Shown here piece after piece: positions 381 to 48,800 of a stretch of DNA of 58,041 nt. Position 1 is the first letter of the stretch; the number at the start of each line of letters is the position of its first letter. This stretch comes from an uncultured Erysipelotrichaceae bacterium (GTDB lineage: Bacteria; Bacillota_I; Bacilli_A; RF39; UBA660). The stretch lies in contig CACZOQ010000004.1 in assembly GCA_902782835.1 (NCBI GenBank), positions 1 through 58,041 of the forward strand. The letters are read 5' to 3'. Below the pieces are notes generated by a model. That model made no database searches and had not been told where the DNA came from. It saw only the letters and a list, made by a program, of their open reading frames with translations. The position numbers and the translations under genes are program-made.

Positions 381-585
381 AAAAAAAACACGAATACTCA
401 TCCTAAGGACGAAATATTCGCGGTACCACCTTAATTCATGTATGAACATGCTCTCTTTATCTCTTAACGCGAGTAACGATTTTTCTCCAAGTATGTAATT
501 CAATATAATACTCTCTTAGTTTCCACCTACCACTAAGTCTCTATCAAAAAGAATCATACCTACTAAAAACTCTTCCACAAAAACT
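381..585 (-). promoter_or_regulatory. T-box riboswitch leader (specifier ambiguous: UUA Leu or UAC Tyr)
   Basis: On the minus strand: AGAGA and GGTGGAAA stem I elements, then a GAA-UUA-C specifier region (495-501). The conserved T-box sequence GGTGGTACCGCG is at 419-430. A terminator hairpin follows (CGAATATTTCGTCC..GGATGAGTATTCG) with a run of eight T, then GGAGG and the ATG of the CYTH gene. Confidence 0.8.
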
Positions 586-591
586 AACTAA

Positions 592-4061: not shown

Positions 4062-5375
4062 ATGTTAAAACTAAACCTATTAGAAAAAGAAAAATTTGAT
4101 TCCTTTGTCAAAAATCATAAAACAAAATCTCATTTCTTACAGTCATACTCTTGGGGTGAGTTTTCTAAAATCAAAAAAAATATGACACCATATTATTTAG
4201 GATTAGTAAATGAAGAAAATGAAATCGTTGCAGCCACTCTTCTTTTGCAAAAACATCTACCAATGAACTATAGTTACTTCTATGCTCCAAGAGGCTTTGT
4301 ATTAGATTATAAGAAAAAAGAAATAGTACGCACAATGACAAAGAAAGTAATCGAATTTATAAAAAATAAAAAAGCAATCTTCTTAAAAATAGATCCAGAT
4401 ATTATAATAAAATCTATAAACTATCAAAACGAAGAAACAGATAATGAAGACTATAAAGATATATTTGAAACATTAAAATCTTGTGGTTTTAAACATCAAG
4501 GATTTACTAAAAATTTTGAAACAATGCAACCAAGATATACTTTTCGTATCGATTTAAATCAACCAATAGAAGAAATAGAAAATCACTTTTCAAAAACAAC
4601 AAAACAACGAATTGCTAAAAGTTTAAAATTAGATACAGAAGTTGTAATTGGAACAAAAAAAGATATTCCAGAATTTTACCATTTAATGACACTAACCGAA
4701 AACAGGAAAGATTTTATTTCTTATAATGAAGACTATTACGAGACATTATATGAAATTTTTAATGGAAATGAGAATAGTAAAGCCACTTTATTCTTAGGAA
4801 AAGTACATATATCTAAAACAATCAAAGCATTAGAAAAAAGCTTAAAAGAAATAAACAATCAAATATCAATTCTACCAATTGATAATCTAAGTAAAAGTGC
4901 CAAAGCTAAATTAACAGAATTAACCAAACAAAAAGAAAACATTCAAAAAGACATTGAAAAATATAAAGAATACAAAAAAGAATATGGAAATGATCTAACA
5001 CTAAGTGCTCATATGATTATTGAATATGGAGACAAGGCATGGGTTCTATATGCTGGAAATCATAACATATTAAGTGAAACATATGTAAACTATAATACTT
5101 ATTTTGAACACTTAAAATATTGTAAAGATCGTGGTCTTAAAATATATGATCAATTTGGAACCATTGGTGATTTAAGTGAGAACAATCCTCGATTAGGGCT
5201 ACATGAATTCAAAAAGAAATTCGGTGGAGACTATGTTGAATTTATGGGAGAATGGGATTATGTAACAAATAAAATCATGTATTTTATATTTACTAAATGT
5301 GTACCACTATATCGTAAAATAATTCGTAGGAAAAGCAAAAAGGAGTTAGAACATGAAATTAGTAAATCTGAGTAA
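4062..5375 (+). CDS. FemAB-family peptidoglycan interpeptide-bridge aminoacyltransferase
   Basis: FLQSYSWGEF, FYAPRGFVLDY, FLKIDPD, central coiled-coil insert, C-terminal GLHEFKKKFGG. This is the FemA/FemB/FemX/MurM architecture. Confidence 0.85.
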   Translation: MLKLNLLEKEKFDSFVKNHKTKSHFLQSYSWGEFSKIKKNMTPYYLGLVNEENEIVAATLLLQKHLPMNYSYFYAPRGFVLDYKKKEIVRTMTKKVIEFIKNKKAIFLKIDPDIIIKSINYQNEETDNEDYKDIFETLKSCGFKHQGFTKNFETMQPRYTFRIDLNQPIEEIENHFSKTTKQRIAKSLKLDTEVVIGTKKDIPEFYHLMTLTENRKDFISYNEDYYETLYEIFNGNENSKATLFLGKVHISKTIKALEKSLKEINNQISILPIDNLSKSAKAKLTELTKQKENIQKDIEKYKEYKKEYGNDLTLSAHMIIEYGDKAWVLYAGNHNILSETYVNYNTYFEHLKYCKDRGLKIYDQFGTIGDLSENNPRLGLHEFKKKFGGDYVEFMGEWDYVTNKIMYFIFTKCVPLYRKIIRRKSKKELEHEISKSE

Positions 5376-6642
5376 AAATGAATTTAAAAAATTTGCAGAC
5401 AAACATGAACAAATAACATTTCACCAAACAGAAGAATGGGCAAATCTAAAAAAGAAAAATGGTTGGGATGCATACTATGTTGGTTTAAAAGACAAAAATA
5501 AAATAGTAGCAGGAGCTATGATTTTAGCAAAAACTCTACCAATAATAAAAAAGAAAATGTTTTATTCTCCAAGAGGATTTTTAATTGATTACAAAAACAA
5601 AGATTTATTAAAAGAATTTACAGAAGAAATAAAAGAATTTGCCAAAAAAGAAAAAGCTATTTTTATCAAAATTGATCCTTATGTAGAATATCAAGAAAGA
5701 GATAATAATGGTGATATAGTAGAAGATGGATATCAAAATAAAGATACTGTAGAAAATTTAAAAGAGTTAGGCTATAAATTTTTTGGCTTTAATACAATGC
5801 AAGATACTCTTCAACCAAGATGGATGCATGTAATTGAAATCAATGGTAAAAATGAAGAAGAAGTCCAAAAAGACATGGAATCTAAGACAAGACAAATACT
5901 AAGAAAAAATGAAAAATCCAGCATTAAAACACATGAAATAACAAAAGAAGAATTACCACTATTTAAAAGTATTATGGAACATACTGGAGAAAGACGAGAT
6001 TTTATTGATAGACCATTATCATACTATGAAGCAATGTGGGATAATCTACACGATAGTGGAATACTAAAAATATTAATAGCTGATATTGATTTTAATGAAT
6101 ATGAAAACAATACAAAAAAGGAAATAGAAGAAGTAAAAAAAGCATTAGCAGATCGTATTTATAAACATGATAATAATTTATTGAAAATGAATGAAAAAAA
6201 ATATGAATCAACTAACAAGCAAGATAAAGAATCTATCGAAAGACTAAATAATCAACTAGATAAAATCAAAAAATATAAAGAAGAATATGGAGAAAAAAAG
6301 ACTTTAGGAACAATCTTATTCTTGATATATGGAAACGAAGTATTATCATTATTTGGAGGAACTGACGATAATTTAATGCAATTCCAATCAGCTTATACCG
6401 TTCATTATGCCGGCATAAAATATGCGATTGATCACCATTATAAACGATATAATTTTTATGGAATTACAGGTGACTTTCATAAAGAAAATCCATTATATGG
6501 TCTATTTCTATTTAAAAAAAGTTTTGGAGGACATGTAGTAGAATTAATTGGAGAATATGACTTAATCATTTCTAAGTTTTGGTATAACATATATCAAACA
6601 GCCTTTAAAACATATCATTTTTTAAAGAAAATAAAAAAATAA
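5353..6642 (+). CDS. FemAB-family peptidoglycan interpeptide-bridge aminoacyltransferase (second tandem copy)
   Basis: FHQTEEWANLKK, FYSPRGFLIDY, FIKIDPY, coiled-coil insert, GLFLFKKSFGG. AAGGAG RBS. Overlaps the previous gene by 23 nt. Confidence 0.85.
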   Translation: MKLVNLSKNEFKKFADKHEQITFHQTEEWANLKKKNGWDAYYVGLKDKNKIVAGAMILAKTLPIIKKKMFYSPRGFLIDYKNKDLLKEFTEEIKEFAKKEKAIFIKIDPYVEYQERDNNGDIVEDGYQNKDTVENLKELGYKFFGFNTMQDTLQPRWMHVIEINGKNEEEVQKDMESKTRQILRKNEKSSIKTHEITKEELPLFKSIMEHTGERRDFIDRPLSYYEAMWDNLHDSGILKILIADIDFNEYENNTKKEIEEVKKALADRIYKHDNNLLKMNEKKYESTNKQDKESIERLNNQLDKIKKYKEEYGEKKTLGTILFLIYGNEVLSLFGGTDDNLMQFQSAYTVHYAGIKYAIDHHYKRYNFYGITGDFHKENPLYGLFLFKKSFGGHVVELIGEYDLIISKFWYNIYQTAFKTYHFLKKIKK

Positions 6643-6664
6643 GTGGTTAAAAACCACTTTTTTA
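6641..6664. terminator. bidirectional rho-independent terminator between convergent genes
   Basis: AAGTGGTT-AAA-AACCACTT flanked by A and T runs. Confidence 0.75.
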
Positions 6665-7459
6665 TATACTTTTTGCACCATAAGTATTCCAATAAGAAGA
6701 CTTAGCAGTATTACCTCGATCAATACCTCTACTTTCACTATTATCCGGTATTTCAAAGTCAACCGTCCATTTATAGGCAGCATCATAAGCTCCTTGTTCT
6801 GTATTAGGAACACTCTTAAGAGTATTATAAACTCCTGGATATTCATGCTCCAATTCATAAACTAAATAATCAAGTTGTCCTTCAAGACTATTTACATCTT
6901 TATTATTAGCAGCACAATAATTCTTTAAATTTGTCCAACGACTATTATGCCATTGACATATACCATAAGAAGTACCATTATCACCTAAAGCTGTTGGATC
7001 AAAACCTGATTCATGCTCAATATTAGCTAAAATTCCACAAATAGCAGCATTATTAAATCCTTTGTTAGCTAGATAATTGTAAACTGCATCCTTTGAAGCA
7101 TTACCTGTAGATACATTACTAACTGTTGCCGTCTCAACTTTAGAATTTGCTCCAATACGAAGAACAGCATCACTACCAGCCTTATCACCCTCTTGATAGG
7201 AATTAGCTGTATCTACCAAGTAATCACCTACCGCTGAGAAATCTGAAGTAATATTATTAATCTTTGAATTGGCAGCAGAAAATGCATCCATACAAGAATC
7301 ACAAATTGGACCCATGAATACTGCATCACTATCTAATGTGCTTTGGCAATCAGAAATTGCTGTCTTACTAGAGGCAAAATCAGTATTCAAAGTATTAATA
7401 GAAGAAACGCCATCACTAAAAGCCCCATAATCACTAACTTGAATATTCTCATTACCCAT
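6662..7459 (-). CDS. leaderless protein: WXG100-size helical N-module fused to a phage-tail-lysozyme-like muramidase domain
   Basis: N-terminal 95 aa are nearly identical to those of the gene at 7551-8444. C-terminus has ICGILANIEHESGFDP, YGICQWHNSRWTNL, QLDYLVYELE. No signal peptide. Confidence 0.7.
   Translation of the reverse strand: MGNENIQVSDYGAFSDGVSSINTLNTDFASSKTAISDCQSTLDSDAVFMGPICDSCMDAFSAANSKINNITSDFSAVGDYLVDTANSYQEGDKAGSDAVLRIGANSKVETATVSNVSTGNASKDAVYNYLANKGFNNAAICGILANIEHESGFDPTALGDNGTSYGICQWHNSRWTNLKNYCAANNKDVNSLEGQLDYLVYELEHEYPGVYNTLKSVPNTEQGAYDAAYKWTVDFEIPDNSESRGIDRGNTAKSSYWNTYGAKSI
7193..7429 (-). repeat. copy 1 of the duplicated N-terminal module coding sequence
   Basis: Aligns with 8184-8420 at an offset of 991 nt. 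By eye, about 7 mismatches in the 112 nt nearest the gene 5' ends, more divergent further in. Confidence 0.8.
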
Positions 7460-7518
7460 ACTATCACCATCTTTAAATCTATTGTAGCATCAAATATAAA
7501 GGGGATACAAATAATCTA

Positions 7519-7550
7519 CAAAAAAATTACACAACCTGTAAAGTGTAATT
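7519..7550 (-). terminator. rho-independent terminator after the glucosaminidase-fusion gene
   Basis: Minus strand AATTACAC-loop-GTGTAATT followed by TTTTTT. Directly abuts the stop codon. Confidence 0.7.
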
Positions 7551-8444
7551 TTAAGTATCATATTTTTCCAAACCGTAATTAGAAATAATAGAAGCATATT
7601 TTCCAGTAGTAGTTCTTCCGGCAGGTGGAGGAGTATAAGCCTCCAAGAAAGTAGAATAATCTTGTAAATTGTTGCTACCAACACATTCAGGATGGTAAAT
7701 AGACATAATATCCGTATAATCATCAATACATTCTTCTACACTGTCATAATGACGCATGTCTTCACTTGTAGGAATCGTTCCTGTTTTACTTTCATTTAAT
7801 TGACTAACATTATTCTGACCATATGTTTTTTTCTTAGACCATTCCGATGTCTGACGATCAGTAGATACTCCCATCTCATAGTTAACACCCAAAACATTAT
7901 TATAATTTGAAAGAGAAGAGGCATGCGAACTCATCCATCCACTCTCATTAATAATTTGAGCAATAATTAATGATTTTTTCATACCATGAGTATTCGTATG
8001 ATTCACAATATTGGCAACTTTATCAATCCACTCTTGTTGAGCAGCCTTATCAGAATTATAAGCACGATCACCTAAACTATAAAATGCATTTGCCTGAGTT
8101 GACCCTCCATTTAACGACAAACCAGAATTAGAAGGAAGATTTAATGCTTTTGCAACGGTATTAGAAGCTTGTTTATCATCACTTTGATAAGAATTAGCAG
8201 TTTCCACTAAGTATTCTCCAACAGCAGAAAAATCAGAAGTAATATCATTTATTTTAGAATTAGCAGTGCTAAAAGCCTCCAAACAAGAATCACAGATAGG
8301 GCCCATAAAAACAGCATCACTATCTAATGTGCTTTGACAATCAGAAATTACTGTCTTACTAGAAGCAAAATCAGTATTCAAAGTATTAATAGAAGAAACA
8401 CCATCACTAAAAGCTCCATAATTACCAACTGTTGTATCAGGCAT
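7551..8444 (-). CDS. leaderless protein: WXG100-size helical N-module fused to an N-acetylglucosaminidase (glucosaminidase/FlgJ-type) domain
   Basis: C-terminus has SLIIAQIINESGWMSS, NNVLGV, MRHYDSVEECIDDYTDIM, YASIISNYGLEKY. The N-terminal module is shared with 6662-7459. No signal peptide. Confidence 0.7.
   Translation of the reverse strand: MPDTTVGNYGAFSDGVSSINTLNTDFASSKTVISDCQSTLDSDAVFMGPICDSCLEAFSTANSKINDITSDFSAVGEYLVETANSYQSDDKQASNTVAKALNLPSNSGLSLNGGSTQANAFYSLGDRAYNSDKAAQQEWIDKVANIVNHTNTHGMKKSLIIAQIINESGWMSSHASSLSNYNNVLGVNYEMGVSTDRQTSEWSKKKTYGQNNVSQLNESKTGTIPTSEDMRHYDSVEECIDDYTDIMSIYHPECVGSNNLQDYSTFLEAYTPPPAGRTTTGKYASIISNYGLEKYDT
8184..8420 (-). repeat. copy 2 of the duplicated N-terminal module coding sequence
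   Basis: See 7193-7429. Confidence 0.8.
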
Positions 8445-8482
8445 ATCATCACCATCCTATCTATTAATATTCTATCATAATT

Positions 8483-8506
8483 AAAAAAAAGTGGAAACCA
8501 CTTTTT
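8483..8506 (-). terminator. rho-independent terminator closing the five-gene WXG-like operon
   Basis: Minus strand AAAAGTGG-TTT-CCACTTTT followed by a T run. Confidence 0.75.
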
Positions 8507-8512
8507 AGAAAT

Positions 8513-8824
8513 TTACGCACCTATAGCTTTATTAATAGTACTTTGTCCAGCTTTATCACGTTCTTGTTGATCTTTAACCATCGCTCTAATATAGCTCTCC
8601 AAATTAACTACCTTTTGATGGAAAACATCATATTGTTTACTTAATTCTTGATAATTTTCTCTTGTAATATCTGCCCCTTGACTAATCCAGCCAGTCTCAT
8701 AAATATTATCCATATTGGAATTAATACGCCCAAAAGTGTCAACAATTTCTTCATCAAGACTCTTTATTTCACTAGCAATTTGAATTGCTTCATCATAGTG
8801 ACCTAAACGAATATTACCTGCCAT
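8513..8824 (-). CDS. WXG100-like small helical protein (variant turn GWISQG)
   Basis: 103 aa with a two-helix layout. Its C-terminal DQQERDKAG resembles the end of the duplicated module (YQEGDKAG). Confidence 0.55.
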   Translation of the reverse strand: MAGNIRLGHYDEAIQIASEIKSLDEEIVDTFGRINSNMDNIYETGWISQGADITRENYQELSKQYDVFHQKVVNLESYIRAMVKDQQERDKAGQSTINKAIGA

Positions 8825-8840
8825 AATAAACCTCCTTAAA

Positions 8841-9149
8841 TTAAACTCCTTCTAAATTTCTTGCATCGTGAGCTCTTTCAGCTTCTCCCTCTTCAAACAT
8901 TCCAGCAACCTGAACATTGGCATTACCTAAATCATTCAAAGTACCTTGAAGAGCAGTAAATGATTGTTCCATTGTATTAAATGAGCTACCAAAATCAACA
9001 GCATCATCACCATCCCAGATTGCTAATAACTTATCAACTTTAGATTCCATAGAACTGATTTGTTCACGTAGAGTATCTGAATTTTGAACAATATTGTGTC
9101 CTTCTGAGCTCATATCACTTGTATTTGTTTTAAAATCAACTTGCGCCAT
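8841..9149 (-). CDS. WXG100 family protein (EsxA-like)
   Basis: Canonical central AIWDGDDAVDF (W-x-G), about 100 aa. Start moved to MAQVDF (ATG at 9149), which is preceded by GGAGG. Confidence 0.7.
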   Translation of the reverse strand: MAQVDFKTNTSDMSSEGHNIVQNSDTLREQISSMESKVDKLLAIWDGDDAVDFGSSFNTMEQSFTALQGTLNDLGNANVQVAGMFEEGEAERAHDARNLEGV

Positions 9150-9224
9150 ATATATCCTCCTATCTAATACCAATTATATACTATAAATTTCACATATGAC
9201 AATAAAATGTACATATCTTTACGA

Positions 9225-9512
9225 TTATATACTTAAACTTGACAATTCTTCTTCCAATGATTCAATACTTTGAGCAGCAGATTTTATAAACTCACCTAAT
9301 GAGTTTACATATTCAGCACTAGCCTTTGCTTCTGCTATTTTAGCATTATTAGTTTCAACAAAACTATTCTTAGCTGAACTTGTCCAATTTGACAAATTCC
9401 CTTCAATATTTGATCCATAAGTATTAACACTTGACGTAATATTGGAAGCTTCTTGACATAATTTCTCACCAACAGATGTAACAGTTGCAAAATCACAAAC
9501 ATATTTAGCCAT
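9225..9512 (-). CDS. WXG100-like small helical protein (turn NWTSSA)
   Basis: About 95 aa, helical, Ser/Ala/Asn rich. Start taken at MAKYV with AGGAG upstream. It abuts the stop of the upstream gene. Confidence 0.5.
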   Translation of the reverse strand: MAKYVCDFATVTSVGEKLCQEASNITSSVNTYGSNIEGNLSNWTSSAKNSFVETNNAKIAEAKASAEYVNSLGEFIKSAAQSIESLEEELSSLSI

Positions 9513-9513
9513 A

Positions 9514-10584
9514 TTAAACATTTTCTCCTTTCTCATTATTATCTATAGATTCATCAGAGTCTGTTTTACTACCCGATTCTTGTGAAGTATCAACCGTCTC
9601 CTCAGAAGAGGATTGATCATCACTAGGGCTCTTTTCAGTACCAGATTTCTGATTACTAGCGGACTCTTCATCAGCAGGCACACCATTATCTTCTGCCATA
9701 ACTGTCTTTTGATCAGATTCCGGTTCTTTTACTTTTTTATAATTACCTTTGTTTTCAATTTCAGAAACATCTTTTAATAAATGATCACATACATCTTTCT
9801 TTTTTAATTCTTTATAATTTTTATCCACTAAGAAACCAATTGCTTCTTTATTTTCCTCAGATACTGTGGAAATACCAATAACACAAGAAACAATAGTTCC
9901 ATCCTTATGAATAAAATCAATAACATCTCCAACATTACCTATAGAAGAATCGCAAGCAATCACAAAACGATTTCCAATCATCGCATAACCATCTTTATAA
10001 GTAACAGATTTCATAAGTTTTTTAGAATCATCACTTAATTTATCCGATTTTGGTGATGCATAATAAACATCCGATAATTTTGCTTTTACTTTACCTTTTT
10101 TATTTTTCTTTTCCTTGTCATCTTCATCTTCCTTTTCTTTCTCTTTTATACCAGGAGAAGGAGTAATATAGGAACTTCCACCACCACTATAGCCACCAGA
10201 GTAACCACCTGAATAACAACCGCCAGTATAGCCACCACCAGTAGGAGCACCTAAATTACTACTATCAGGGGTACCAGTTTCATTGCTAGTTGGAGTGCTG
10301 CTAGCTTCTTTTCCTGTTGCAACGTCAACTTTCAACTGATTCTGAAGATCCGTATGAGAAGATACAACTTTTTCCATAATACTTGCCGTATTATGAACTT
10401 TAGTAGAACAAGCATCAATATTTTGAGCAATAATATTTTTAGCCGTTGCAAAATCAAAACCATCTTCACAAGCAGTATCATATCCATTAACCGAACTACT
10501 TAAAGAAGTAATTTGCGAAACTATCGAATCAATAGATGATGCTGAAGAAGATACAGCATCGCATTCTAACATAAATACTGCCAT
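9514..10584 (-). CDS. leaderless modular protein: helical N-module, GGYSGG low-complexity linker, unassigned globular domain, acidic Ser-rich tail
   Basis: N-terminus SSASSIDSIVSQITSLSSSVNGYDTACEDGFDFATAKN..HTDLQNQL. Linker GGGYTGGCYSGGYSGGYSGGGSS. Domain GNRFVIACDSSIGNVGDVIDFIHKDGTIVSCVIGIS. AGGAGG RBS. Confidence 0.6.
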   Translation of the reverse strand: MAVFMLECDAVSSSASSIDSIVSQITSLSSSVNGYDTACEDGFDFATAKNIIAQNIDACSTKVHNTASIMEKVVSSHTDLQNQLKVDVATGKEASSTPTSNETGTPDSSNLGAPTGGGYTGGCYSGGYSGGYSGGGSSYITPSPGIKEKEKEDEDDKEKKNKKGKVKAKLSDVYYASPKSDKLSDDSKKLMKSVTYKDGYAMIGNRFVIACDSSIGNVGDVIDFIHKDGTIVSCVIGISTVSEENKEAIGFLVDKNYKELKKKDVCDHLLKDVSEIENKGNYKKVKEPESDQKTVMAEDNGVPADEESASNQKSGTEKSPSDDQSSSEETVDTSQESGSKTDSDESIDNNEKGENV

Positions 10585-10593
10585 ACATACCTC

Positions 10594-11511
10594 CTAAGCA
10601 TTTTTACCTACATAACGTAAATATCCATCCCATCCACCATTGTGGAAATTTTCATAATCATTAACGTTAATTTCTTGCCCTCCAGGATCCCCATCGTTAG
10701 ACCCACCACTCCAATTATCATGAGCACCAACCTTTTTACCATCACCAACATACATTTCAACATGATGAGCTAAATTAACTAAAATATCTCCCGGTTCTAG
10801 TTCATCAACATTAGGAGTTCCTTCATGCCATTCAAATCCAAAAGGCAAATAATTATTAACCATAGAAGCATTATTCGTATAATATTTTACATCTCCTAAA
10901 GGAACCCCAGCATTTTCATATGCTTGATTGATAAGGGAAGAACAATCAAACCCATGGTTTCCTAATTGAGGATATCCTCCACTCTCATATCCATAAGAGT
11001 CATCCGCTGCAATCTTAAGTGCCCATTCAACAGCTTTTTGAGCAACTTCATTACTAGAAGTTTTAAGAACTGCTCCATTACGAACATCACCACTTAATGA
11101 AATAGCGGACAAAGTAGCTGCCGAAGCAGAAGCTAAATTAGACTCAATTTGAGATTTCAAATCAGTTAATTGTTTATCATATAAAGAAATATCAGAATTA
11201 TATTTTTGAATATTAGCAGAATCATTATTAGAAACAGCTTGATTGTACAAAGATCTTGCCTGTGACAAAGAAGTCTTTACATTTTTATAATCCTCATATA
11301 AATCACAAGCAGCAGCAAAAGAATCCATTTCTCCTTGAATTGTACTTAAGTATTCTGATAAAAATTCTTCACTCTTAGATAATAAATTATCATGAGATGA
11401 TCCTGTCCAAGAAGATGATAACCCATTAATCTCATTCGAATAACGATCCAAAGCTTCTTTCAAAGAATTAAAATCACTTTGAACAGCGCTACCAGCTACC
11501 ATAGGCATCAT
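10594..11511 (-). CDS. leaderless protein: WXG-like helical N-domain fused to an NlpC/P60 cysteine peptidase domain
   Basis: N-terminus LSSSWTGSSHDNL (W-x-G turn) within about 140 aa of helices. C-terminus GNHGFDCSSLINQAYENAGVPL and PGDILVNLAHHVEMYVGDGKKVGAH. The true start may be the third ATG (11502). Confidence 0.7.
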   Translation of the reverse strand: MMPMVAGSAVQSDFNSLKEALDRYSNEINGLSSSWTGSSHDNLLSKSEEFLSEYLSTIQGEMDSFAAACDLYEDYKNVKTSLSQARSLYNQAVSNNDSANIQKYNSDISLYDKQLTDLKSQIESNLASASAATLSAISLSGDVRNGAVLKTSSNEVAQKAVEWALKIAADDSYGYESGGYPQLGNHGFDCSSLINQAYENAGVPLGDVKYYTNNASMVNNYLPFGFEWHEGTPNVDELEPGDILVNLAHHVEMYVGDGKKVGAHDNWSGGSNDGDPGGQEINVNDYENFHNGGWDGYLRYVGKNA

Positions 11512-11602: not shown

Positions 11603-13255
11603 TTACCGCTTTAATAAAATCTTTTTGACAGTCCTGAAAATATCTTTTCCAAACACTTTACTTGTCAAGTGAGTAAAATAACCATAAATAAAATAGAAAA
11701 TCATTCCCATTAAAACATATACTAATAAAATAAACAAATTAACAATTCTAATATCAGAAGAAATAGGAATAAATAATTTCAATAAAAGTAAACCAACAAC
11801 CATCAACAAAGAACCACAAATTATATCAAAAAAGTTTTTTAAAAAGTCCTCAAAATGAATCTTATAATGAGAATGTAGAGTAATAAAACAAAGAACAATT
11901 GCTACTAAGTATCCCAAAATACTAGCCGTAATAGCACCATAATAAGGAGGTAAATTCATCTTACAAAAAGCAATAATAAAATTAGTATTAAATAATATTT
12001 TTATAATAACACCAACCAATAAACTAATAATAACCATACGATAATTTTTCAAAGTTTGTAAAATAGTTACTAATAATGTAAATAAACCAATTGTAAATCC
12101 TAAAAAAATAAAATAACTTAACACACTTGGTCCAAATATACTATTACCATAAAATAAAATCCAAATTGGTTTTGCTAAAAAGCTAATTCCTAATGTCATA
12201 GGAACTGTTAGATATAATAATATACATAAAGATTGATTAACTTTTTTATTAATATCATTCTTATCTTTTTTCACAACACTTTCTGTAAGATTAGGTAAAA
12301 GACTAACAATAACACCAGTAGAAATAGATAGAACAATCATATTAAATTTAGCTGCCCAGGTCGAAATCATAGCATATACATTTTCAGCATCTTTAGCAGA
12401 AAATGAAGCATAAGATACAAGATTTTTTACCAAAGTAACCATGTCAACATAGTTATAAATCGACTTAAAAACATCAATTAAAATAAAAGGAATCGCATAA
12501 AAAACAATCTTATGAAAAATAACTTTATCCGTTACGATTGGTTCATTAATTGGTCGAATTCTTTCCTGAAATTTAGCCTTATTTTTAATCTTCTTCTCAA
12601 CTAAATAAAGATAGGAAACCAAAGCCCCGATAGTTGCTCCCAAAAGTGCAATTCCAACCGAAGTAGCTAAATTTAAATGGAATATTTTAATAGCCGAAAA
12701 ACTACCAAAAATAATAATGGAAACACGTACAGCTTGCTCTAATACTTGAGAAATAGAAGGAGGACTCATGAAACGATGCCCTTCAAAGTATCCGCGATAT
12801 ACACTTAATAAAGGAACAATTAAGATAGCTGTACTAATAATTCGAATAACATAAGTAACATCTTTTAAAGAATTACCTCCAACCACGTCACCCAAAATAG
12901 CCTTAGCTAAAAGCGGCGCAAAAAAGAATAGAATTAGAAAACAAGAAATTCCCAAAATAAGAGCAATCTTTTTTCCCATAGCAAAAACTCTTTTTTTAGT
13001 ATTATAATAACCTAACGTTTGGTATTCTGAAACAACTTTACAAATAGCCAAAGGAATTCCAGCTGTTGCTAAAGACATAAACAAAGTATAAATTGTATAG
13101 GCATAACCATAAAGGGCTCCACCCTTTTCACCTACAACAGCGTGAAAAGGAATAACATATAATATTCCTAATATTTTTGTAAGAATAATTGCAAAAGTAG
13201 CTATAAAAGCTCCCTTTACAAAAGTTGTCTTTTTCATAGTAATATCTTTTTTCAT
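11603..13255 (-). CDS. MOP-superfamily flippase (MurJ / SpoVB / YtgP-like, putative lipid II or polysaccharide flippase)
   Basis: 550 aa polytopic membrane protein. N-terminus KGAFIATFAIILTKILGILYVIPFHAVVGEKGGALYGYAYTIY is typical of the YtgP/SpoVB group. Confidence 0.7.
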   Translation of the reverse strand: MKKDITMKKTTFVKGAFIATFAIILTKILGILYVIPFHAVVGEKGGALYGYAYTIYTLFMSLATAGIPLAICKVVSEYQTLGYYNTKKRVFAMGKKIALILGISCFLILFFFAPLLAKAILGDVVGGNSLKDVTYVIRIISTAILIVPLLSVYRGYFEGHRFMSPPSISQVLEQAVRVSIIIFGSFSAIKIFHLNLATSVGIALLGATIGALVSYLYLVEKKIKNKAKFQERIRPINEPIVTDKVIFHKIVFYAIPFILIDVFKSIYNYVDMVTLVKNLVSYASFSAKDAENVYAMISTWAAKFNMIVLSISTGVIVSLLPNLTESVVKKDKNDINKKVNQSLCILLYLTVPMTLGISFLAKPIWILFYGNSIFGPSVLSYFIFLGFTIGLFTLLVTILQTLKNYRMVIISLLVGVIIKILFNTNFIIAFCKMNLPPYYGAITASILGYLVAIVLCFITLHSHYKIHFEDFLKNFFDIICGSLLMVVGLLLLKLFIPISSDIRIVNLFILLVYVLMGMIFYFIYGYFTHLTSKVFGKDIFRTVKKILLKR

Positions 13256-13333: not shown

Positions 13334-13357
13334 AAAAAAGCTTAAAAAGCTTTTTTA
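13334..13357 (-). terminator. rho-independent terminator after the L,D-transpeptidase gene
   Basis: AAAAAAGCTT-AAA-AAGCTTTTTT palindrome. Confidence 0.7.
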
Positions 13358-14803
13358 CCATGGATTATTACTATCCTCATCTGTTGGATCCCAACCTCGA
13401 TTAGGACTATTTCCATCAATTTTAGTAAAACCAGGTTTAGAAATTTCAGATGGTAAATCTCCATCATATATCTTAACAGTAGTTCCAGCAGGACAATGAT
13501 TAAATATCCATCTAGCATCTCGAACCGTTAAACGTACACATCCCATAGAAGCTTGTGTTCCCAGTTTATTATATTCTTCCCATTCTAAATCACCTTTGTT
13601 TTTACTAAAATATGGTACCGAATGAAATAATATATCACTAACAATTCTAGTCGTATATTGTCCCCAAACACCACCATATAATAATCCCCAAGTAGTTCCT
13701 TTTGTAGTTTGAAAAGTTCCAACAGGGGTTGCATTACCAGCCCCCGTAGAACAAATAAAAGATTTAATTACTTCTGTATATTCTCCATTTTCATCCAAGC
13801 CATAAACAACAACGACATTTTGGTTTCGTATTACATGAATAATATAAGGTTTCTGATTTACTTTCGCAATAACTTTAATAGAAATAGTTTTCTCACTCAT
13901 ATTACCATTCTTATCTTTAGCAGTAACTTTAATAGGATAGGTCCCCACACTACTTTTATTATAAGAACCATCTAATACACAATCAACTTCACCATCAACT
14001 AAATCCTCACAATGAACTTTTTGAGAAAGATTCACTTCATTATTAACATAGATTGTAATATCATTTGCAGTAATAATAGGCCCATCTTTATCATCCACTA
14101 ATTGAAAAGAAATATTCTTTTTAGAATTAGATATTTCAATCATACAGAATTCATCATAAATACTACGTTTTTGAAATTCAACTTTATGATCAGATAAACG
14201 CCAGGTATCAAAATGATTTTTTAAAAACTCTAAAACCATAATATCTTTGTCAATAAGATTCATATGATTAGTAATAGTATTTAAATATTTCTTTAATAAT
14301 GAATAATTAACCTTCTTTAAAAGAGAATCATATTCTTTTTTATGTTTGAAATCAATAAATTGATTCTGAGTTTTCTTTTTTAATAATACTTCTAAAGATT
14401 CTTTTTCCTTACTTAATTGTCTATTCTCTTCCTGCAACGTCTCTATACTTTTTTGAATTTTAGAAACATCATCTAACTCTTCTTCAGAAAACACAATATT
14501 AGACGTATTTTTTTCAATAATTGTATTAGAAACATTATAAGTAGAAATAATTTCTTTTAAATATTGGTTTAATCCTTTTTCCAATTTTTTTAAATGGGTT
14601 TCTTTTTGTTTTATTGTCTTTTCCACATCAATATATTTACAATCAGAAGATAGAAAACGATTTACAAGAATTACTTTATTATCTAACTTTTGATATTCTA
14701 TTTTATTTCGTATGAGAGGAAATAAAAACAAAATTACAGCAACCAAAAAAACGCCTAATAATAAGAAAAATATTTTCTTTTTCATTCTATCATCTACTTT
14801 CAT
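13355..14803 (-). CDS. membrane-anchored L,D-transpeptidase (YkuD domain) with coiled-coil and Ig-like domain
   Basis: C-terminus HSVPYF..ASMGCVRLTVRDARWIF (His..Ser-x-Gly-Cys-x-Arg catalytic signature). Ig-like segment GTYPIKVTAKDKNGNMSEKTISIKV. N-terminal TM helix. Confidence 0.8.
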   Translation of the reverse strand: MKVDDRMKKKIFFLLLGVFLVAVILFLFPLIRNKIEYQKLDNKVILVNRFLSSDCKYIDVEKTIKQKETHLKKLEKGLNQYLKEIISTYNVSNTIIEKNTSNIVFSEEELDDVSKIQKSIETLQEENRQLSKEKESLEVLLKKKTQNQFIDFKHKKEYDSLLKKVNYSLLKKYLNTITNHMNLIDKDIMVLEFLKNHFDTWRLSDHKVEFQKRSIYDEFCMIEISNSKKNISFQLVDDKDGPIITANDITIYVNNEVNLSQKVHCEDLVDGEVDCVLDGSYNKSSVGTYPIKVTAKDKNGNMSEKTISIKVIAKVNQKPYIIHVIRNQNVVVVYGLDENGEYTEVIKSFICSTGAGNATPVGTFQTTKGTTWGLLYGGVWGQYTTRIVSDILFHSVPYFSKNKGDLEWEEYNKLGTQASMGCVRLTVRDARWIFNHCPAGTTVKIYDGDLPSEISKPGFTKIDGNSPNRGWDPTDEDSNNPW

Positions 14804-14824: not shown

Positions 14825-15811
14825 CTAAGATTTAGGATTATCATTTTTTTTCAGATAACTATTACCATGAACTTGTAATTCATTATTTCTTTTTCGAACA
14901 CGATCATTAATATCTAACTCAATAATTGAATCACAGATTTTATAACGATAAAATGCTTTGATTGCGCTATAATCGCCTTCCCCTATCGCTAAATTCATGG
15001 CAGTGTGATATTCTGTTCTTTCCATGGCTTTAACATAGATAGGTGGTAAACCCGCATCTTCAAGTAGCTTATTAATAAAAGCTCTCACTGTTCGACCATT
15101 CCCATCTGGAAATGGATGAATCCAAATGAGTTGACATTTTAATTCTACACATCTATCTAAATATTTTAATAAAGCATCTACATCTCCCAATAGTCGAATC
15201 TCTTTAGCCACTTTATGTAATTGGTCAACATCATGACGAAGCGCAAACATTTCCCTCTCAACCATATAAGATTCACATAGATTTAAACCAGTTCCCGGTA
15301 AGAAACGTTGATCTGTTCGGTAATACCCTGCACACTCTGGATGAGGAGCATGAGAATATAATTTTTTATGTAATTCTTTTAAAGAATAAATTGAAAAATA
15401 TTCTTCAAACTCTTCTGAATGAAGATACTCATACATATCTAATAAACCTTCTATTTCCACTTTACCATGAATATCCTCATCATTAACTCCTTCAAGTTGA
15501 CTTTCATTTTTCACATATTTAGAAACAAAAGATTTTTTAAACTTATCAAAGTCTTCATTAGTCGGTTTTAAACTATAATAAAAACGAATTAAATCAGTTG
15601 GAATATGACCATCTTTTTCATATAATTTTCCCTTTTGTTTACGATACTTATAACCCAAAAAAGATTCTAATAATATATCCGGAATATTTACTCCGCTTTC
15701 AAGCAAATCAACATAAGCCTTTCTAATACGAGCTGTTCTCTCTTGAATAGAATCTGGATCGTCCTGAACTTCAATACTATATCGGCAACCATTACTGCTT
15801 ATATAATCCAT
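14825..15811 (-). CDS. Fic-family protein (AMPylase-type motif)
   Basis: Canonical HPFPDGNGRTVRAF. Start moved to MDYISSNG (ATG at 15811), which is preceded by AAGGGGG. Confidence 0.8.
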   Translation of the reverse strand: MDYISSNGCRYSIEVQDDPDSIQERTARIRKAYVDLLESGVNIPDILLESFLGYKYRKQKGKLYEKDGHIPTDLIRFYYSLKPTNEDFDKFKKSFVSKYVKNESQLEGVNDEDIHGKVEIEGLLDMYEYLHSEEFEEYFSIYSLKELHKKLYSHAPHPECAGYYRTDQRFLPGTGLNLCESYMVEREMFALRHDVDQLHKVAKEIRLLGDVDALLKYLDRCVELKCQLIWIHPFPDGNGRTVRAFINKLLEDAGLPPIYVKAMERTEYHTAMNLAIGEGDYSAIKAFYRYKICDSIIELDINDRVRKRNNELQVHGNSYLKKNDNPKS

Positions 15812-15863
15812 CAATACTACCCCCTTTAAATTGCCTAAATTATAACACAAAATTAAAAAAAAG

Positions 15864-18667: not shown

Positions 18668-18867
18668 AAAAAAAAGCAATCACCCTATAAGGACGATTGC
18701 TCGCGGTACCACCTTAATTTATAAGAATTCTTATACTCTCATTATTGATAACGGAATTACCCATTTGCTCAAAAGACAAGTTCATAAAAAACTATTCTCT
18801 ATTTTCACCAACCATAGAGTCTCTACAGATAGTTATTTCACTACTACTTCTTTTTCATCACAAAATA
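18668..18867 (-). promoter_or_regulatory. T-box riboswitch leader, Leu specifier CUU
   Basis: Minus strand AGAGA, GGTGAAAA distal loop, GAA-CUU-G specifier (CUU at 18778-18780), GGTGGTACCGCG at 18702-18713. Terminator GCAATCGTCC..GGGTGATTGC plus T run. An extended -10 (TGtTATAAT) is at 18875-18883. Confidence 0.85.
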
Positions 18868-22245: not shown

Positions 22246-23373
22246 TTACTTATCTAAAAACATAACCCAATATTCTTCTAAAGTCATATCATGTTCATGA
22301 ATATAAGTAGCAATATCTTCTCCAACATATCGATAATGCCACGGTTCATTACGAAAACCTGTCAAATACTCATATTTAGTTGTAAATCGACGTATAAAAC
22401 CATATTTATAGGCATTCTCTTGCATCCATTCATATTCTTTACTATTTCCAAATACATTAACACTACGACTTCCGATATCATAAGCAAGACCTGTCTGGTG
22501 TTCGGAATAACCAGGCTTAGCAATATATTTATCCACATAAGATTGACCATAAGCTTTTAAATAAAAATTAGATAAATCAACCTGGTCTTGATAACTACGA
22601 TAAGCAGAATTAATGACAATACCATATCCTTCTTTTTCAGCAGCATCACTCATCTTTTTATAAGCATTATACGCTATCTTACTAGATTGAAGTCCATCTT
22701 CAGAAGCATATTTCGAATCGATATCTACTAAATCATATGGAGCAAACTTCTCACTCAAATGATGATGTTTATTAACTAACATATCAGGCGAAAAAGAACT
22801 AACTAATGTACTATCAACGTAATCTTCTTTGTCAAGATCTAAATTGACAAATAATACTGTAACATCCTCATCTTCACCAGTATCATCTGAATATTGAGTA
22901 TAACGATCATAATAATCTAATTTTGCATAATCAATACTAAAGAATTCTTCAAGATAACGTACTTTATCTCTTTTTAAAAAATTCTCAACAGCAGCATCAT
23001 TACCATGAGCAAAAATAATATTGATATCACTATTACTATAACCAATCTGAATCATTTTATTAATGTGTGAAATAAAATGTTTCTGATTAACAAAATCAAT
23101 TTTTCGATATCGATCTAAATTTTCTTCAATATAATCATCACTTTCAAAAGCCGCATTCAAACTTTCATTCTTACCAACAGATAAAACATAATCTTTTTTA
23201 AAAGAAAACAATATCGTACGACTAGCTACTTTACTATATCCAAGTTTTGTCAAGTCATTGATTTGTTTACAATAAAACAAAAATACTACTAAAAAAATAC
23301 CTAAAAGAATTCCAAATACTTTTAATAACATAGCAAACTTAGGTTTTAATTTAATCTTATGAACCTTTCTCAA
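22246..23373 (-). CDS. membrane-anchored D-alanyl-D-alanine carboxypeptidase, VanY / peptidase M15B family
   Basis: SAYRSYQDQ, AKPGYSEHQTGLAYDI, EPWHYRYVG. TTG start 7 nt after AGGTGA. Confidence 0.8.
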   Translation of the reverse strand: MRKVHKIKLKPKFAMLLKVFGILLGIFLVVFLFYCKQINDLTKLGYSKVASRTILFSFKKDYVLSVGKNESLNAAFESDDYIEENLDRYRKIDFVNQKHFISHINKMIQIGYSNSDINIIFAHGNDAAVENFLKRDKVRYLEEFFSIDYAKLDYYDRYTQYSDDTGEDEDVTVLFVNLDLDKEDYVDSTLVSSFSPDMLVNKHHHLSEKFAPYDLVDIDSKYASEDGLQSSKIAYNAYKKMSDAAEKEGYGIVINSAYRSYQDQVDLSNFYLKAYGQSYVDKYIAKPGYSEHQTGLAYDIGSRSVNVFGNSKEYEWMQENAYKYGFIRRFTTKYEYLTGFRNEPWHYRYVGEDIATYIHEHDMTLEEYWVMFLDK

Positions 23374-28550: not shown

Positions 28551-30035
28551 ATGATGGCTCCATTAAGAAAAAAAGGAGGGAGAATTATCAAAAAGATAAG
28601 TATTTTCTTAATAACAATAATTGGCTTATTACTTTGTATCAATGTAAAAGCTGAAACCGTCAATTTTTATGAGGCAGAATATATAGATGGAATCTATATC
28701 AATAAGTATAATGCATTTAAAAATACGATTGATTATCAAAAAGCAAGATTTTTCCGAAGAAGTGACACCAATGAATTTGCCTATTGTATTGAACCATTCA
28801 ATTATTTCAGGGCTGGATATGAACATGAAATAACAAATTTTCCTAATAATGCAAATCCAGAAAGAATAGATAGAATTCGTAAACTTGCCCATTTTGGTTA
28901 TGGCTATCAAAACCATACAGATGCAAAATGGTATGCAATAACACAAGTACTAATCTGGGAAACAGCAGAACCAGAAGGAGATTATTATTTCACACAAGGA
29001 ATCGTAGGGGAAAGAATAAATCCCTATCAAGCTGAAATAGATGAAATAAATTATTTGATAGAAGAATACTCGAAAATGCCAAGTTTTGCCAATCAAACGT
29101 TTTATACAGTAGAAGGTCAAGATTTTATACTTACAGATACCAATAACAGTATTCAATCATTCACAACAAATGATCCAGTAAGCAGAATAAATAATCAATT
29201 AAAATGGACGAATACAAAAGCAGGAAATTATCATTATACATTTCAAAAAGAAGACACATTTTATAACAAACCATTATTATTCTATCAATCTGATAATACT
29301 CAAAACCTAGTTACAACAGGTGATATAGAAAGTATTCATTTCGAATTCAATATCAAAGTCATCCAAACAAGTCTAGAAATAACAAAAATCGATAAAGATA
29401 CGAAATCCATTACACCAAGAGGAGAAGCAAAACTAGATGGAGCAATCTATGAATTATTAGATTCCAATAAAAAAGTAATACAAGAAATAACAATTGAAAA
29501 TAATCAAGTAATCTTAAACAATCTAAATTTTGGAAAATACTATATAAAAGAAAAAAAACCTGGAATAGGATATACTCTAGATACAAATGAATATGAAATA
29601 ACAATCACAAAAGAAAAACCAACGATTGAACTCATCTTAGAAAACAAAGTAATAGAAAAGAAAATAAGAGTAGAAAAAAAATATGGAGAAGACAATAATT
29701 TTCAAAAAGAAACAAATATTATATTCCATATTCTTAATCAAAATAATGAATTTGTTCTAGAAGCCACAACAAATGAAGAAGGATTTTTTGAAATTCAATT
29801 ACCATATGGAACCTATCAATTAATTCAAATCAATACAACAGATGGTTACCAAAAAATAGATGACTATCAAATCATTGTCAGTAATACAGAAGATGAATTA
29901 ATTGAATTAAAAGATCTAAAAATACCAATTCCTAATACTCATAAAGATAAACAAAAATCCACAATGCCACTATCGATTCTATATCCAATACTAATAGGAA
30001 TACTATGGAAAAGAAAATTATCTATGGAGTTTTAA
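28551..30035 (+). CDS. surface adhesin with Cys-Gln thioester (TQXA-type) domain and two CnaB/SpaA-like domains; atypical sorting signal
   Basis: Signal peptide ..LLLCINVKA-ETV. FAYCIEPF (thioester Cys) and AITQVLIWE (Gln). LEITKIDKDT..GKYYIKEKKPGIGY and EGFFEIQLPYGTYQLIQ folds. C-terminus IPNTH (29928-29942) plus a hydrophobic stretch plus WKRK. The start codon is uncertain. Confidence 0.7.
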   Translation: MMAPLRKKGGRIIKKISIFLITIIGLLLCINVKAETVNFYEAEYIDGIYINKYNAFKNTIDYQKARFFRRSDTNEFAYCIEPFNYFRAGYEHEITNFPNNANPERIDRIRKLAHFGYGYQNHTDAKWYAITQVLIWETAEPEGDYYFTQGIVGERINPYQAEIDEINYLIEEYSKMPSFANQTFYTVEGQDFILTDTNNSIQSFTTNDPVSRINNQLKWTNTKAGNYHYTFQKEDTFYNKPLLFYQSDNTQNLVTTGDIESIHFEFNIKVIQTSLEITKIDKDTKSITPRGEAKLDGAIYELLDSNKKVIQEITIENNQVILNNLNFGKYYIKEKKPGIGYTLDTNEYEITITKEKPTIELILENKVIEKKIRVEKKYGEDNNFQKETNIIFHILNQNNEFVLEATTNEEGFFEIQLPYGTYQLIQINTTDGYQKIDDYQIIVSNTEDELIELKDLKIPIPNTHKDKQKSTMPLSILYPILIGILWKRKLSMEF

Positions 30036-30514
30036 TCTTTCTATGGATACTAACCATCCCAACAAGTATAATCAAAATCGAAAACAAACAACAACCCGTA
30101 GAAAAAAAAGAATCAGGAGAGAGAATTGGCACTATTATTATCGAAAAAATACAGCTGAACGAGCCATTATACAAAATAAACAGTTCAAAAAATAATATTG
30201 AAGAACACGTAACAATATTAAAAGAATCTACTCCACCAACTGAAGACAATAGTATTATGATTCTAGCAGCACACTCAGGTGATGACAAAATATCCTATTT
30301 TGAATATCTGGATCAAATAGAAATAGGAGATACCATTCATTTAATATATCAACAAAAAAAATATAGTTATCAAGTAAAAGAAATATGGGAAGAAATAAAA
30401 AATGGTTTTATACATATCAACAAAGAAAAGGGAAAACAACTTGTCCTAACAACATGTAGCCCCAACAAAGAAAAATGGCAACTCATAATAAATTGTACAG
30501 AAAAAGGAGTCTAA
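30005..30514 (+). CDS. small sortase-family transpeptidase
   Basis: N-terminal TM helix, ILAAHSG (His), QLVLTTCSP (Cys). Overlaps the adhesin gene by 31 nt. Confidence 0.7.
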   Translation: MEKKIIYGVLIFLWILTIPTSIIKIENKQQPVEKKESGERIGTIIIEKIQLNEPLYKINSSKNNIEEHVTILKESTPPTEDNSIMILAAHSGDDKISYFEYLDQIEIGDTIHLIYQQKKYSYQVKEIWEEIKNGFIHINKEKGKQLVLTTCSPNKEKWQLIINCTEKGV

Positions 30515-38597: not shown

Positions 38598-38627
38598 CAA
38601 AAAAAGTTATAATTTTCATTATAACTT
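38598..38627 (-). terminator. rho-independent terminator after the NlpC/P60 gene
   Basis: Perfect 10-bp stem AAGTTATAAT-loop-ATTATAACTT followed on the minus strand by a T run. Confidence 0.75.
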
Positions 38628-48799: not shown

Positions 48800-48800
48800 T

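Follow-up and report, generated by a model that had tools for sequence, protein, structure and literature searches.

A lineage-specific operon in uncultured Bacilli encoding leaderless predicted peptidoglycan hydrolases with WXG100-type helical modules, probable cargo of a type VII secretion system

We analysed a 58,041-nucleotide (nt) stretch of DNA from an uncultured Erysipelotrichaceae bacterium (the whole of contig CACZOQ010000004.1 of the metagenome-assembled genome GCA_902782835.1, hereafter the window; G+C about 30%), for which matching sequence fragments come from rumen-type samples. The subject of this study is a block of seven consecutive minus-strand genes at 6662-11511, here named g1 to g7 (Table 1), which a preliminary description made from the letters alone had read as encoding leaderless proteins with small helical modules, four of them with C-terminal heads. 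Throughout, N1 denotes the module of the g1 type, N2 that of g6 and g7 and N3 that of g2, whereas the stand-alone small proteins g3, g4 and g5 are together called the trio. Our open reading frame (ORF) calls recovered all seven genes where they had been placed, and the gaps of 9, 1, 75 and 16 nt reported among the first five agree with the coordinates. The ORF of g1 at 10594-11511 was likewise present; its start, however, lies most likely at 11502 (methionine 4) rather than at 11511, because the ribosome-binding site AGAAAGG is then spaced normally and because a 99%-identical metagenomic protein begins there. A plausible ribosome-binding site precedes each of the seven genes. Zero ORFs were found between them, in agreement with the earlier statement that no immunity-like gene is interleaved. 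With regard to the three terminators originally proposed, those after the fifth and the seventh gene were found, whereas the one after the sixth amounts to a weak hairpin and a T-run seen by eye only. The co-directional flippase gene lies 91-100 nt upstream of g1, depending on the g1 start, with no terminator detected in this gap, and no known RNA element was found at the operon using Rfam, the Rfam matches lying elsewhere in the window. By hydropathy, no signal peptide or other leader was found in the seven proteins, as had been described: the highest Kyte-Doolittle 12-residue mean within the first ~50 residues was 1.43, and no transmembrane segment was found in any of them, all 15-residue windows along the whole proteins being at or below 1.37.

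Table 1. Features of the operon and its immediate surroundings (positions in the window; strand given as + or -,. where the feature has no single strand).
Feature	Position	Strand	Basis or remark
g1: N1 module, linker, NlpC/P60/ELLD endopeptidase head	10594..11502	-	ORF, Pfam, AF2 model
g2: N3 module, Gly/Ser/Tyr linker, beta domain, acidic tail	9514..10584	-	ORF, AF2 model
g3: stand-alone WXG100-like protein, 95 aa	9225..9512	-	sub-threshold Pfam, hhalign
g4: bona fide WXG100 protein, 102 aa	8841..9149	-	Pfam and TIGR03930
g5: stand-alone helical protein, 103 aa, W-x-S-x-G turn	8513..8824	-	hhalign to N2
g6: N2 module, GH73 glucosaminidase head	7551..8444	-	Pfam, motifs
g7: N2 module, Phage_lysozyme2 muramidase-type head	6662..7459	-	Pfam
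Terminator-like hairpin 3' of g5	8486..8506	-	intrinsic type
Bidirectional terminator-like hairpin	6641..6659	.	common to g7 and the convergent FemAB gene
Direct repeat (258 nt), copy 1: N2 module of g7	7182..7439	-	84% identity
Direct repeat (258 nt), copy 2: N2 module of g6	8173..8430	-	84% identity
MurJ/Polysacc_synt-type flippase, upstream context gene	11603..13255	-	Pfam, synteny
Two FemAB-family genes, convergent downstream context	4062-5375, 5353-6642	+	FemAB Pfam in relatives' homologues

Three of the four heads fell into the wall-hydrolase families that their motifs had suggested. The head of g1 matched the Pfam profiles NlpC/P60 (9e-7; 29.3 bits, threshold 23) and ELLD (2e-10; 41.3 bits, threshold 27), and its catalytic residues C187, H247 and H261 were unvarying in 12 homologues. 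The heads of g6 and g7 matched Glucosaminidase (1.9e-13; 51.6 bits, threshold 30.2) and Phage_lysozyme2 (1.2e-35; 123.2 bits, threshold 28.2), respectively, and against a phage collection g7 gave only distant matches to phage-tail lysins (less than 30% identity). For the head of g2, no match was obtained in Pfam, NCBIfam or the PDB sequences, a 12-sequence profile included. The AlphaFold2 (AF2) model of this protein, built on an alignment of 32 homologues, comprises, in this order, two hairpin helices (9-33 and 45-84), a Gly/Ser/Tyr linker that is disordered (86-159), a beta domain at about 160-290 and an acidic tail, disordered as well, the beta domain being modelled confidently (predicted local distance difference test, pLDDT, ~90). 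Compared with the PDB by Foldseek, the beta domain had only weak neighbours (E 0.05-0.3), and the recognisable ones were double-psi beta-barrels, namely cerato-platanin, the N-domain of p97/Cdc48, PA4485 and expansin. Residues D212, D220 and D228 are conserved in this domain, which in relatives may be followed by NlpC/P60 or Peptidase_C39_2. With low to moderate confidence, the model thus points to a probable double-psi beta-barrel that would bind wall glycan or resemble lytic transglycosylases.

We then considered the N-terminal parts, which clustering of 59 module-and-head proteins divided into exactly three classes, N1, N2 and N3. The view of these parts as helical modules was borne out: hairpins were predicted for N1 and N3, and a relation to WXG100 proteins was found at the level of profiles or structures. 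In the AF2 model of g1 (mean pLDDT 79), helices span residues 4-30, 35-91 and 95-127, with the WxG at 32-34 (numbering of the 302-amino-acid (aa) protein) and with W32 and G34 unvarying in 12 homologues; the N1 class as a whole carries WxG at residue 32 in 22 of 22 members. N2 has an F-M-G-P turn at 46-48 (F-x-G in 18 of 19 members and L-M-G in one, with F-K-G-P and L-M-G-P as variants) and a YxxxD at 86-88 in all 19, while N3 is marked by an HxxxQ at about residue 77 (18/18). An aromatic turn had been claimed for six of the seven proteins and could not be placed in g2; we now place the turn of g2 in a conserved GYDTxCEDGFDF loop between its two hairpin helices, where there is still no turn of the WxG type. 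Among the small proteins, the g3 family has WxG at position 43 (15 of 17 members), the g4 family has WxG in 14 of 15, and in the g5 family W-x-S-x-G is conserved. The window's own copy of g3 reads W-T-S, the turn glycine having been lost. A turn together with an export-arm motif plays a role in mycobacterial substrates of type VII secretion systems (T7SS; PMC9600955). Both parts of this bipartite signal, the turn and a YxxxD that closes the second helix, occur in the single N2 module of g6 and g7, whereas N1 has the WxG alone.

Sequence profiles resolved the kinship further. Only g4 exceeded the WXG100 thresholds, both in Pfam (2e-10; 41.2 bits, threshold 27.3) and for TIGR03930 (47.2 bits, threshold 44.85), while g3 (2.8e-4, 21.6 bits), g5 (1.3e-3, 19.4 bits) and g1 (12.1 bits) matched the Pfam profile below threshold, and no WXG100 profile match was found for g2, g6 or g7. 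NCBIfam ESAT6_2 was matched by g5 at 2.3e-7, which is under its cut-off. Profile-profile comparison with hhalign connected g3 with g4 (probability 97%), N2 with g5 (90%, over the full length of 98 columns), N1 with g3 (78%) and N3 with g3 (80%, first 36 columns only), and g4 with g5 at a probability of 24%. A Foldseek search with the g1 model had the T7SS substrates PPE41, PPE15 and PPE4 among its matches, with probabilities of up to 0.96. As far as such comparisons go, g3 and N1 appear to have a good WXG100 kinship, N2 and g5 a moderate one and N3 a weak one. Membership of three more specific families that had been put forward did not hold: LXG (PF04740) was not matched by the four long proteins at E ≤ 1, nor was it present among the families of the 97 N1 proteins described below or the Pfam annotations of N3 homologues; the best value for DUF3130/TIGR04197 was that of g3 (E 0.24, 12 bits against a cut-off of 26); and DUF3958 gave no match.

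A scan for the g1 family, taking one genome per species, returned 16 full-length related loci, which were mapped by our own ORF calls and BLAST, and which all stem from uncultured metagenome-assembled genomes (MAGs) labelled variously as Bacilli, Bacillales, Mollicutes or Erysipelotrichaceae. Across these 16 species of uncultured Bacilli the operon is conserved. A g1 gene of the N1-NlpC/P60 type always comes first, followed by more module-and-head genes (2-7 of the kind per operon), the trio and often genes of the N2 type; the trio is always co-encoded, in most loci in the order g3-g4-g5. The usual site consists of the gene for leucyl-tRNA synthetase (LeuRS), one or two variable genes, the MurJ-like flippase gene, the operon and convergent FemAB genes, and four species have the operon elsewhere. 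Synteny with the flippase gene was seen in 11 of the 16 loci and adjacency to FemAB in 9, the operons of the loci designated L014, L016 and L030 lying away from FemAB. Between species, LeuRS is 80-87% and FemAB 74-86% identical, but g1 only 36-48%, indicating that the operon evolves quickly. No interleaved immunity-like ORF was found in most of these loci, as in the window. The idea that the FemAB genes themselves confer immunity is a weak one, which we set aside: their conservation equals that of housekeeping genes, and some operons do not have them as neighbours. An origin from a prophage or mobile element was also ruled out, by the housekeeping flanks and by the merely distant matches to phage-tail lysins.

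The heads are exchanged among the modules. In the related loci, N1 is joined to NlpC/P60, glucosaminidase, Peptidase_C39_2 or an alpha/beta esterase, N2 to glucosaminidase, lysozyme or C39_2, and N3 to the beta domain alone or together with NlpC/P60 or C39_2. In the window itself, the N2 modules of g6 and g7 share 64% protein identity across the first ~130 residues, and their heads differ. Rearranged loci combine a g3-like gene with a following N2-lysozyme gene (L024), or a g3-like and a stand-alone N2-like gene with a following N1-C39_2 gene; small-protein genes hence move with effector genes, which fits a partner role. The extra cassette of L024 (L024:834-2955) comprises a g3-like gene, a stand-alone N2-like gene of 100 aa, an N1-Peptidase_C39_2 gene and a soluble ORF of 186 aa; the last, of no assigned family, is the sole immunity candidate and might be an immunity protein or a chaperone. 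Truncated orphan modules of N2 (86 aa) and N1 (126 aa) are present at L026:3391-4057. When 1.84 billion protein representatives were searched in full by HMMER with the 130-aa N1 module, the module was found in only 161 clusters, always at residues 1-128 of proteins that are mostly 290-470 aa long. Of these clusters, 97 were scanned against Pfam, and the recognised heads were nearly all of wall-hydrolase types: NlpC/P60 (19 of the 97 proteins), ELLD (13), Peptidase_C39_2 (12), CHAP (11), M23 (9), M15_4 (6), S9/esterase (6), Phage_lysozyme2 (3), Amidase_5 (3), Glucosaminidase (2) and NAGPA (1). Nuclease, NADase, deaminase and pore-forming heads, the types that prevail among LXG toxins, were absent from the 97 proteins as judged by Pfam, and the WXG100 profile was matched by 23 of them at E ≤ 1e-3 (best 5e-7).

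Next we looked for the corresponding secretion machinery. The window contains none, as had been noted before: essentially all of its ORFs of at least 90 aa were scanned against Pfam and showed housekeeping and wall-metabolism genes only, and tblastn of the window with the EssC of the lineage and the seven small proteins linked to it gave no match. In one relative (L020), the operon (g1, an N2-glucosaminidase, an N3 protein, g3, g4 and g5) is followed 95 nt downstream by essC, which encodes a protein of 1542 aa with FHA and FtsK/SpoIIIE domains, and small helical proteins are encoded next. The closest PDB sequence to this EssC is YukB of B. subtilis (6e-116), a homologue from L091 scores above the cut-off of the EssC equivalog in NCBIfam (896 bits against 778), and related metagenomic bacteria encode more than 180 close homologues, several of them named EssC of "Bacilli bacterium" at NCBI. 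By sequence, then, the lineage has a bona fide EssC. The essC gene set is constant across five chromosomal contexts (L020:13882-20407, L091:10001-17016, L095:10001-17072, L096/L100:10001-17171 and L097:10001-17010); 3' of essC it comprises an 84-aa protein and then six more proteins, all soluble, helical and 96-170 aa long, of which one is WXG100-like, and the L020 sequence ends after the sixth small gene. Two of the small proteins are profile-related to g3/g4 and to N2. To the eye, the 84-aa protein looks like a YukD/EsaB beta-grasp protein, for which neither profiles nor PDB sequences gave support, and we do not claim this identity. No EsaA, EssA or EssB was recognisable within 10 kb of the lineage essC. 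The essC set of this lineage recalls reduced T7SS variants whose sole common parts are the ATPase, one WXG100 protein and one ubiquitin-like protein (Garrett et al., PMC11217815), and it may be a reduced subtype beyond those described there.

Beside the essC module lies a protein of 344-350 aa (L091:17056-18108(-), L095:17151-18203(-) and L097:17133-18167(+)) with one N-terminal transmembrane helix and an extracellular part that carries H-E-x-x-H; it matches nothing in Pfam or NCBIfam and could be an accessory component or a metallopeptidase. In the close relatives L097 and L098 the module lies between MurD-enolase-prolyl-tRNA synthetase and SecG-RNase R-PGA_cap-SmpB-PFL genes. The window is syntenic with this essC region of L097/L098 and with that of L020 at about 45381-57757 (PFL, SmpB, PGA_cap, RNase R, SecG ... 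MurD-like ligase, FemAB). In the attempt to place an EssC in the assembly of an operon-bearing MAG, GCA_030531695.1 and GCA_965311905.1 proved to be other genomes, and no EssC protein accession numbers were found near that of the g1 homologue of RGIG10070.

Taken together, we consider it probable that the block is a lineage-specific operon of T7SS substrates, with peptidoglycan hydrolases as the cargo and the trio as co-secretion partners. The core of the preliminary description, in which leaderless murein hydrolases depend on a T7SS encoded elsewhere and on small partners, appears consistent with every computational test that was run, while the unrecognised export route that it had offered as an alternative is no longer needed. 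The binding of the trio to the modules, the EssC-dependent export, the activity of the enzymes and their target are all points that we infer. On each enzyme, a WXG100-type hairpin module (N1, N2 or N3) would replace the Sec signal peptide. By analogy with known systems, g3, g4 and g5 most likely bind the modules side by side to give an elongated helical pre-secretion bundle. The turn (WxG/F-x-G) and YxxxD "export arm" of this bundle are what an EssC-type ATPase, encoded at another place in the genome, would recognise. After passage through the membrane, the heads would cut the wall as a D,L-endopeptidase, an N-acetylglucosaminidase and a muramidase-type lysozyme, and the g2 head, the probable double-psi beta-barrel, would bind or cleave glycan outside the membrane.

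Several observations weigh against this reading. N3 has neither a WxG-type turn nor YxxxD, and five of the six families of modules and small proteins lie below the curated WXG100 thresholds as single sequences. T7SS genes are absent from the 58-kb contig, the adjacency of operon and essC occurs in one species only (L020), and the syntenic essC slot of the window holds genes for a racemase, a NifU-like protein and a GGGtGRT protein instead of essC, so that any essC of this genome would sit elsewhere; nor could EssC be tied to this genome or to others whose operon occupies the MurJ-FemAB site. In addition, Cg1735 and RipC, the closest structures to g1, are coiled-coil hydrolases that Sec exports and FtsEX regulates, from which it follows that a wall hydrolase can have long helices that do not direct its secretion. 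Apart from these points, at least one conventional NlpC/P60 protein with an N-terminal membrane anchor is encoded at 38627-39658, and the T7SS route would therefore not be the sole way of exporting hydrolases. This protein has an Ig-like stretch (IKVTAKDK[A/N]GN) in common with the YkuD L,D-transpeptidase protein at 13355-14803, where it lies in the N-terminal part, and Sec-type wall enzymes thus exist beside the leaderless ones.

As to the target of the proposed T7SS substrates, we lean towards the wall of the producer or its sister cell, which seems somewhat likelier than that of competitors, the enzymes then being autolysins for growth and separation. In favour of this are the fixed, 1:1 orthologous first gene g1, whose build of long helices and NlpC/P60 resembles that of CwlO, RipC and Cg1735, the adjoining genes for a lipid-II-flippase-like protein and FemAB, and the lack of an immunity gene; the combined bond specificities also resemble an ordinary autolysin set. 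Tentatively, one may go further and suppose that in this lineage from gut and rumen a reduced T7SS, which may consist of EssC, the 84-aa possible EsaB counterpart and a few small helical proteins, is the routine path by which autolysins for the cell's own growth and division, a CwlO-like NlpC/P60 enzyme included, are exported, that is, a housekeeping system and not a weapon; we regard this as possible.

If competitors are the target, the T7SS-exported enzymes would be interbacterial bacteriolysins from which the producer is shielded by its own wall chemistry, for example FemAB cross-bridges, and not by an immunity protein. Such protection has parallels in lysostaphin/Lif and zoocin A/Zif, and FemAB could in principle act likewise. 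Two FemAB genes do abut the operon, and the swapping of heads among N1, N2 and N3, the copy number of 2-7, the orphan module fragments of L026, the extra cassette of L024 with its 186-aa ORF, and the divergence of g1 orthologues relative to LeuRS in the same loci all speak for this reading. Domain shuffling and copy-number variation are, however, also usual among ordinary autolysins. Known cargo of the type VIIb system (T7SSb) consists mostly of antibacterial toxins (PMC10765036), which favours bacteriolysins; yet an interleaved immunity-like ORF is lacking in the window and in most relatives, FemA1 and FemA2 are conserved like housekeeping genes, with three operons lying away from them, and g1 keeps its 1:1 orthology and fixed position beside wall-synthesis genes. 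Bacteriolysins are therefore a possibility that we take seriously but do not favour.

A different objection concerns the helices themselves, which might be regulatory coiled coils of the CwlO/PcsB/RipC type that keep the hydrolase inactive until activation by FtsEX or another partner, on proteins exported by another route. FtsEX genes are present in the lineage, Foldseek placed Cg1735 (E 6e-5) and the RipC chain of the FtsEX/RipC complex (E 1e-3) at the top for g1, and NCBIfam RipC gave a weak match (2.5e-4; 20.6 bits against a cut-off of 425). These alignments, though, owe most to the shared NlpC/P60 domain and are of low overall quality (root-mean-square deviation 20-34 Å, template-modelling (TM) score ~0.3), the operon proteins have no signal peptide, the WxG is unvarying and some members match the WXG100 profile, the same modules occur on glucosaminidase, lysozyme, M23 and esterase heads, and WXG100 genes lie in the operon, with essC adjacent in L020. 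This reading as a whole appears unlikely, and regulatory coiled-coil and secretion roles are not mutually exclusive. We also hold it improbable that the enzymes serve the machine itself by opening the wall locally for T7SS assembly or the passage of cargo, an accessory role of the kind played in S. aureus by EssH, a CHAP enzyme which is encoded at the T7SS locus and needed for T7SS secretion (PMC10765036, PMC13059805). How effectors cross the thick wall has been called an open question (PMC13492133), and essC adjoins the operon in L020, so that such a role is conceivable; up to seven hydrolases with four or five bond specificities nevertheless seem excessive for it, and the operon usually lies apart from essC, beside MurJ and FemAB. 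EssH is, moreover, reportedly exported by Sec and would therefore not be a T7SS substrate, which also counts against this explanation. Finally, leaderless wall hydrolases are typical of phage endolysins, and ELLD and Phage_lysozyme2 are families named for phage enzymes, which recalls a cytoplasmic lysis cassette whose products are freed by a holin or by membrane damage in programmed lysis. We give this hardly any credence: there is no holin-like or transmembrane protein in or next to the operon, no phage genes surround it and the phage matches are distant only, the chromosomal site is conserved in 16 species, and N-terminal WXG-type hairpins are foreign to endolysins.

If export by T7SS is correct, wall hydrolases with T7SS targeting modules would be a new class of cargo. 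The T7SSb cargo known so far is of two kinds, small WXG100 proteins and toxins of the LXG type that mainly act in target cells or on their membranes. The operon would also be a natural example of a single trio working with several effectors from three module classes. How T7SSb substrates pass through the thick Gram-positive wall, which a 2026 review calls open (PMC13492133), is a question on which the operon bears, and the essC cluster of the lineage appears simpler than the described T7SS subtypes. Should the cell's own wall be the target, type VII secretion would here have a housekeeping function; should it be that of neighbours, the enzymes would be immunity-free bacteriolysins and possible lytic enzymes against gut Firmicutes.

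The contig as a whole is unusually rich in wall genes: three FemAB paralogues (4062-6642 and 56516-57757), a MurD-like ligase (55005-56438), VanY (22246-23373), the L,D-transpeptidase (13355-14803) and an S41 peptidase (30862-32187). These point to a peptidoglycan with interpeptide bridges and 3-3 cross-links. Between the genes for LeuRS and the L,D-transpeptidase lies a Fic-domain protein (14825-15850), and Fic is found at the matching position in L001/L013. Rfam matches comprise a tmRNA gene and two T-box leaders (44868-45247(-), 18686-18867(-) and 402-586(-)), one of the leaders sitting ahead of a small ORF and LeuRS. We also noted a SpaA-type pilin that carries a thioester domain, its gene standing ahead of one for a sortase (28551-30514), and an odd 1031-aa fusion of a GH10 (xylanase-family) and a PHP phosphoesterase domain (41462-44557).

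Within the papers covered, our literature search found no direct precedent for peptidoglycan hydrolases that are exported by T7SS or fused to WXG/LXG modules, which is not proof that none exists, and the operon is best viewed against several partly similar systems. LXG toxins depend on WXG100-like Lap partners with an FxxxD export motif (PMC9600955). As in the TelC/TelD systems of S. intermedius with Lap1/Lap2 (PMC9600955, PMC10801868), the operon proteins join an N-terminal helical targeting domain to a C-terminal head, small WXG100-like proteins are encoded in the same operon, and heads are exchanged between loci; the FxxxD of Lap1 and the YxxxD of N2 both place an aromatic-xxx-D near the end of a helix. 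In contrast to LXG domains of ~200 aa, the operon modules measure 85-130 aa and match none of PF04740, TIGR04197 and DUF3958, the export motif of N2 resides in the effector's own module and not in the partner, effector genes precede or flank those of the partners, and a single trio is provided for several effectors. Further differences from LXG loci are the lack of cognate immunity genes, the wall-synthesis neighbourhood and the recognised heads, which on N1 and in the related loci are almost all wall hydrolases. The nuclease EsaD of S. aureus requires three small partners, EsxB, EsxC and EsxD (PMC10653861), and thus also combines an enzyme that has a helical transport domain with three small helical proteins encoded alongside. 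EsaD and its partners form a long shaft-like pre-secretion complex; the likeness of the partners to the trio is one of arrangement, no kinship of sequence family having been seen, and the immunity protein EsaG and the chaperone EsaE have no counterpart here.

The helix-turn-helix with WxG is shared with EsxA/EsxB, g4 being over the family thresholds, and in joining an aromatic-x-G turn and YxxxD in one hairpin N2 resembles EspB (PMC9600955). Unlike in PE, PPE and EspB, the hairpin is fused to enzymes of ~150-250 aa, the host belongs to the Bacillota with an EssC of the Firmicute type, and no EspG-like chaperone was seen. In CwlO, PcsB, RipC and Cg1735, too, an NlpC/P60 or CHAP domain comes after long helices at the N-terminus; these enzymes lack the WxG and WXG100 partners of the operon proteins and match g1 structurally at a TM score of only ~0.3; CwlO/PcsB/RipC-type hydrolases also carry signal peptides. 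Effectors of type VI secretion systems (T6SS), for their part, are paired with immunity proteins. Wall hydrolases as the cargo of specialised secretion are known from Tae/Tge of T6SS and from Tox-NlpC/P60 and Tox-Glucosaminidase (PMC3482391), and the same toxin census of 2012 lists NlpC/P60 and glucosaminidase toxins under T6SS, PVC and TcdB/TcaC routes only, not under T7SS (PMC3482391). EssH (PMC13059805), the one peptidoglycan hydrolase tied to a T7SSb that is well studied, helps the machine, whereas the hydrolases of the operon look like cargo. Compared with all of these, what is new here are three classes of hairpin module, with wall-hydrolase heads seen for N1 and apparent for N2 and N3 from the related loci and homologues, accompanied by one common trio, free of immunity genes, placed at a fixed site among wall-synthesis genes and belonging to a lineage with an apparently reduced essC set.

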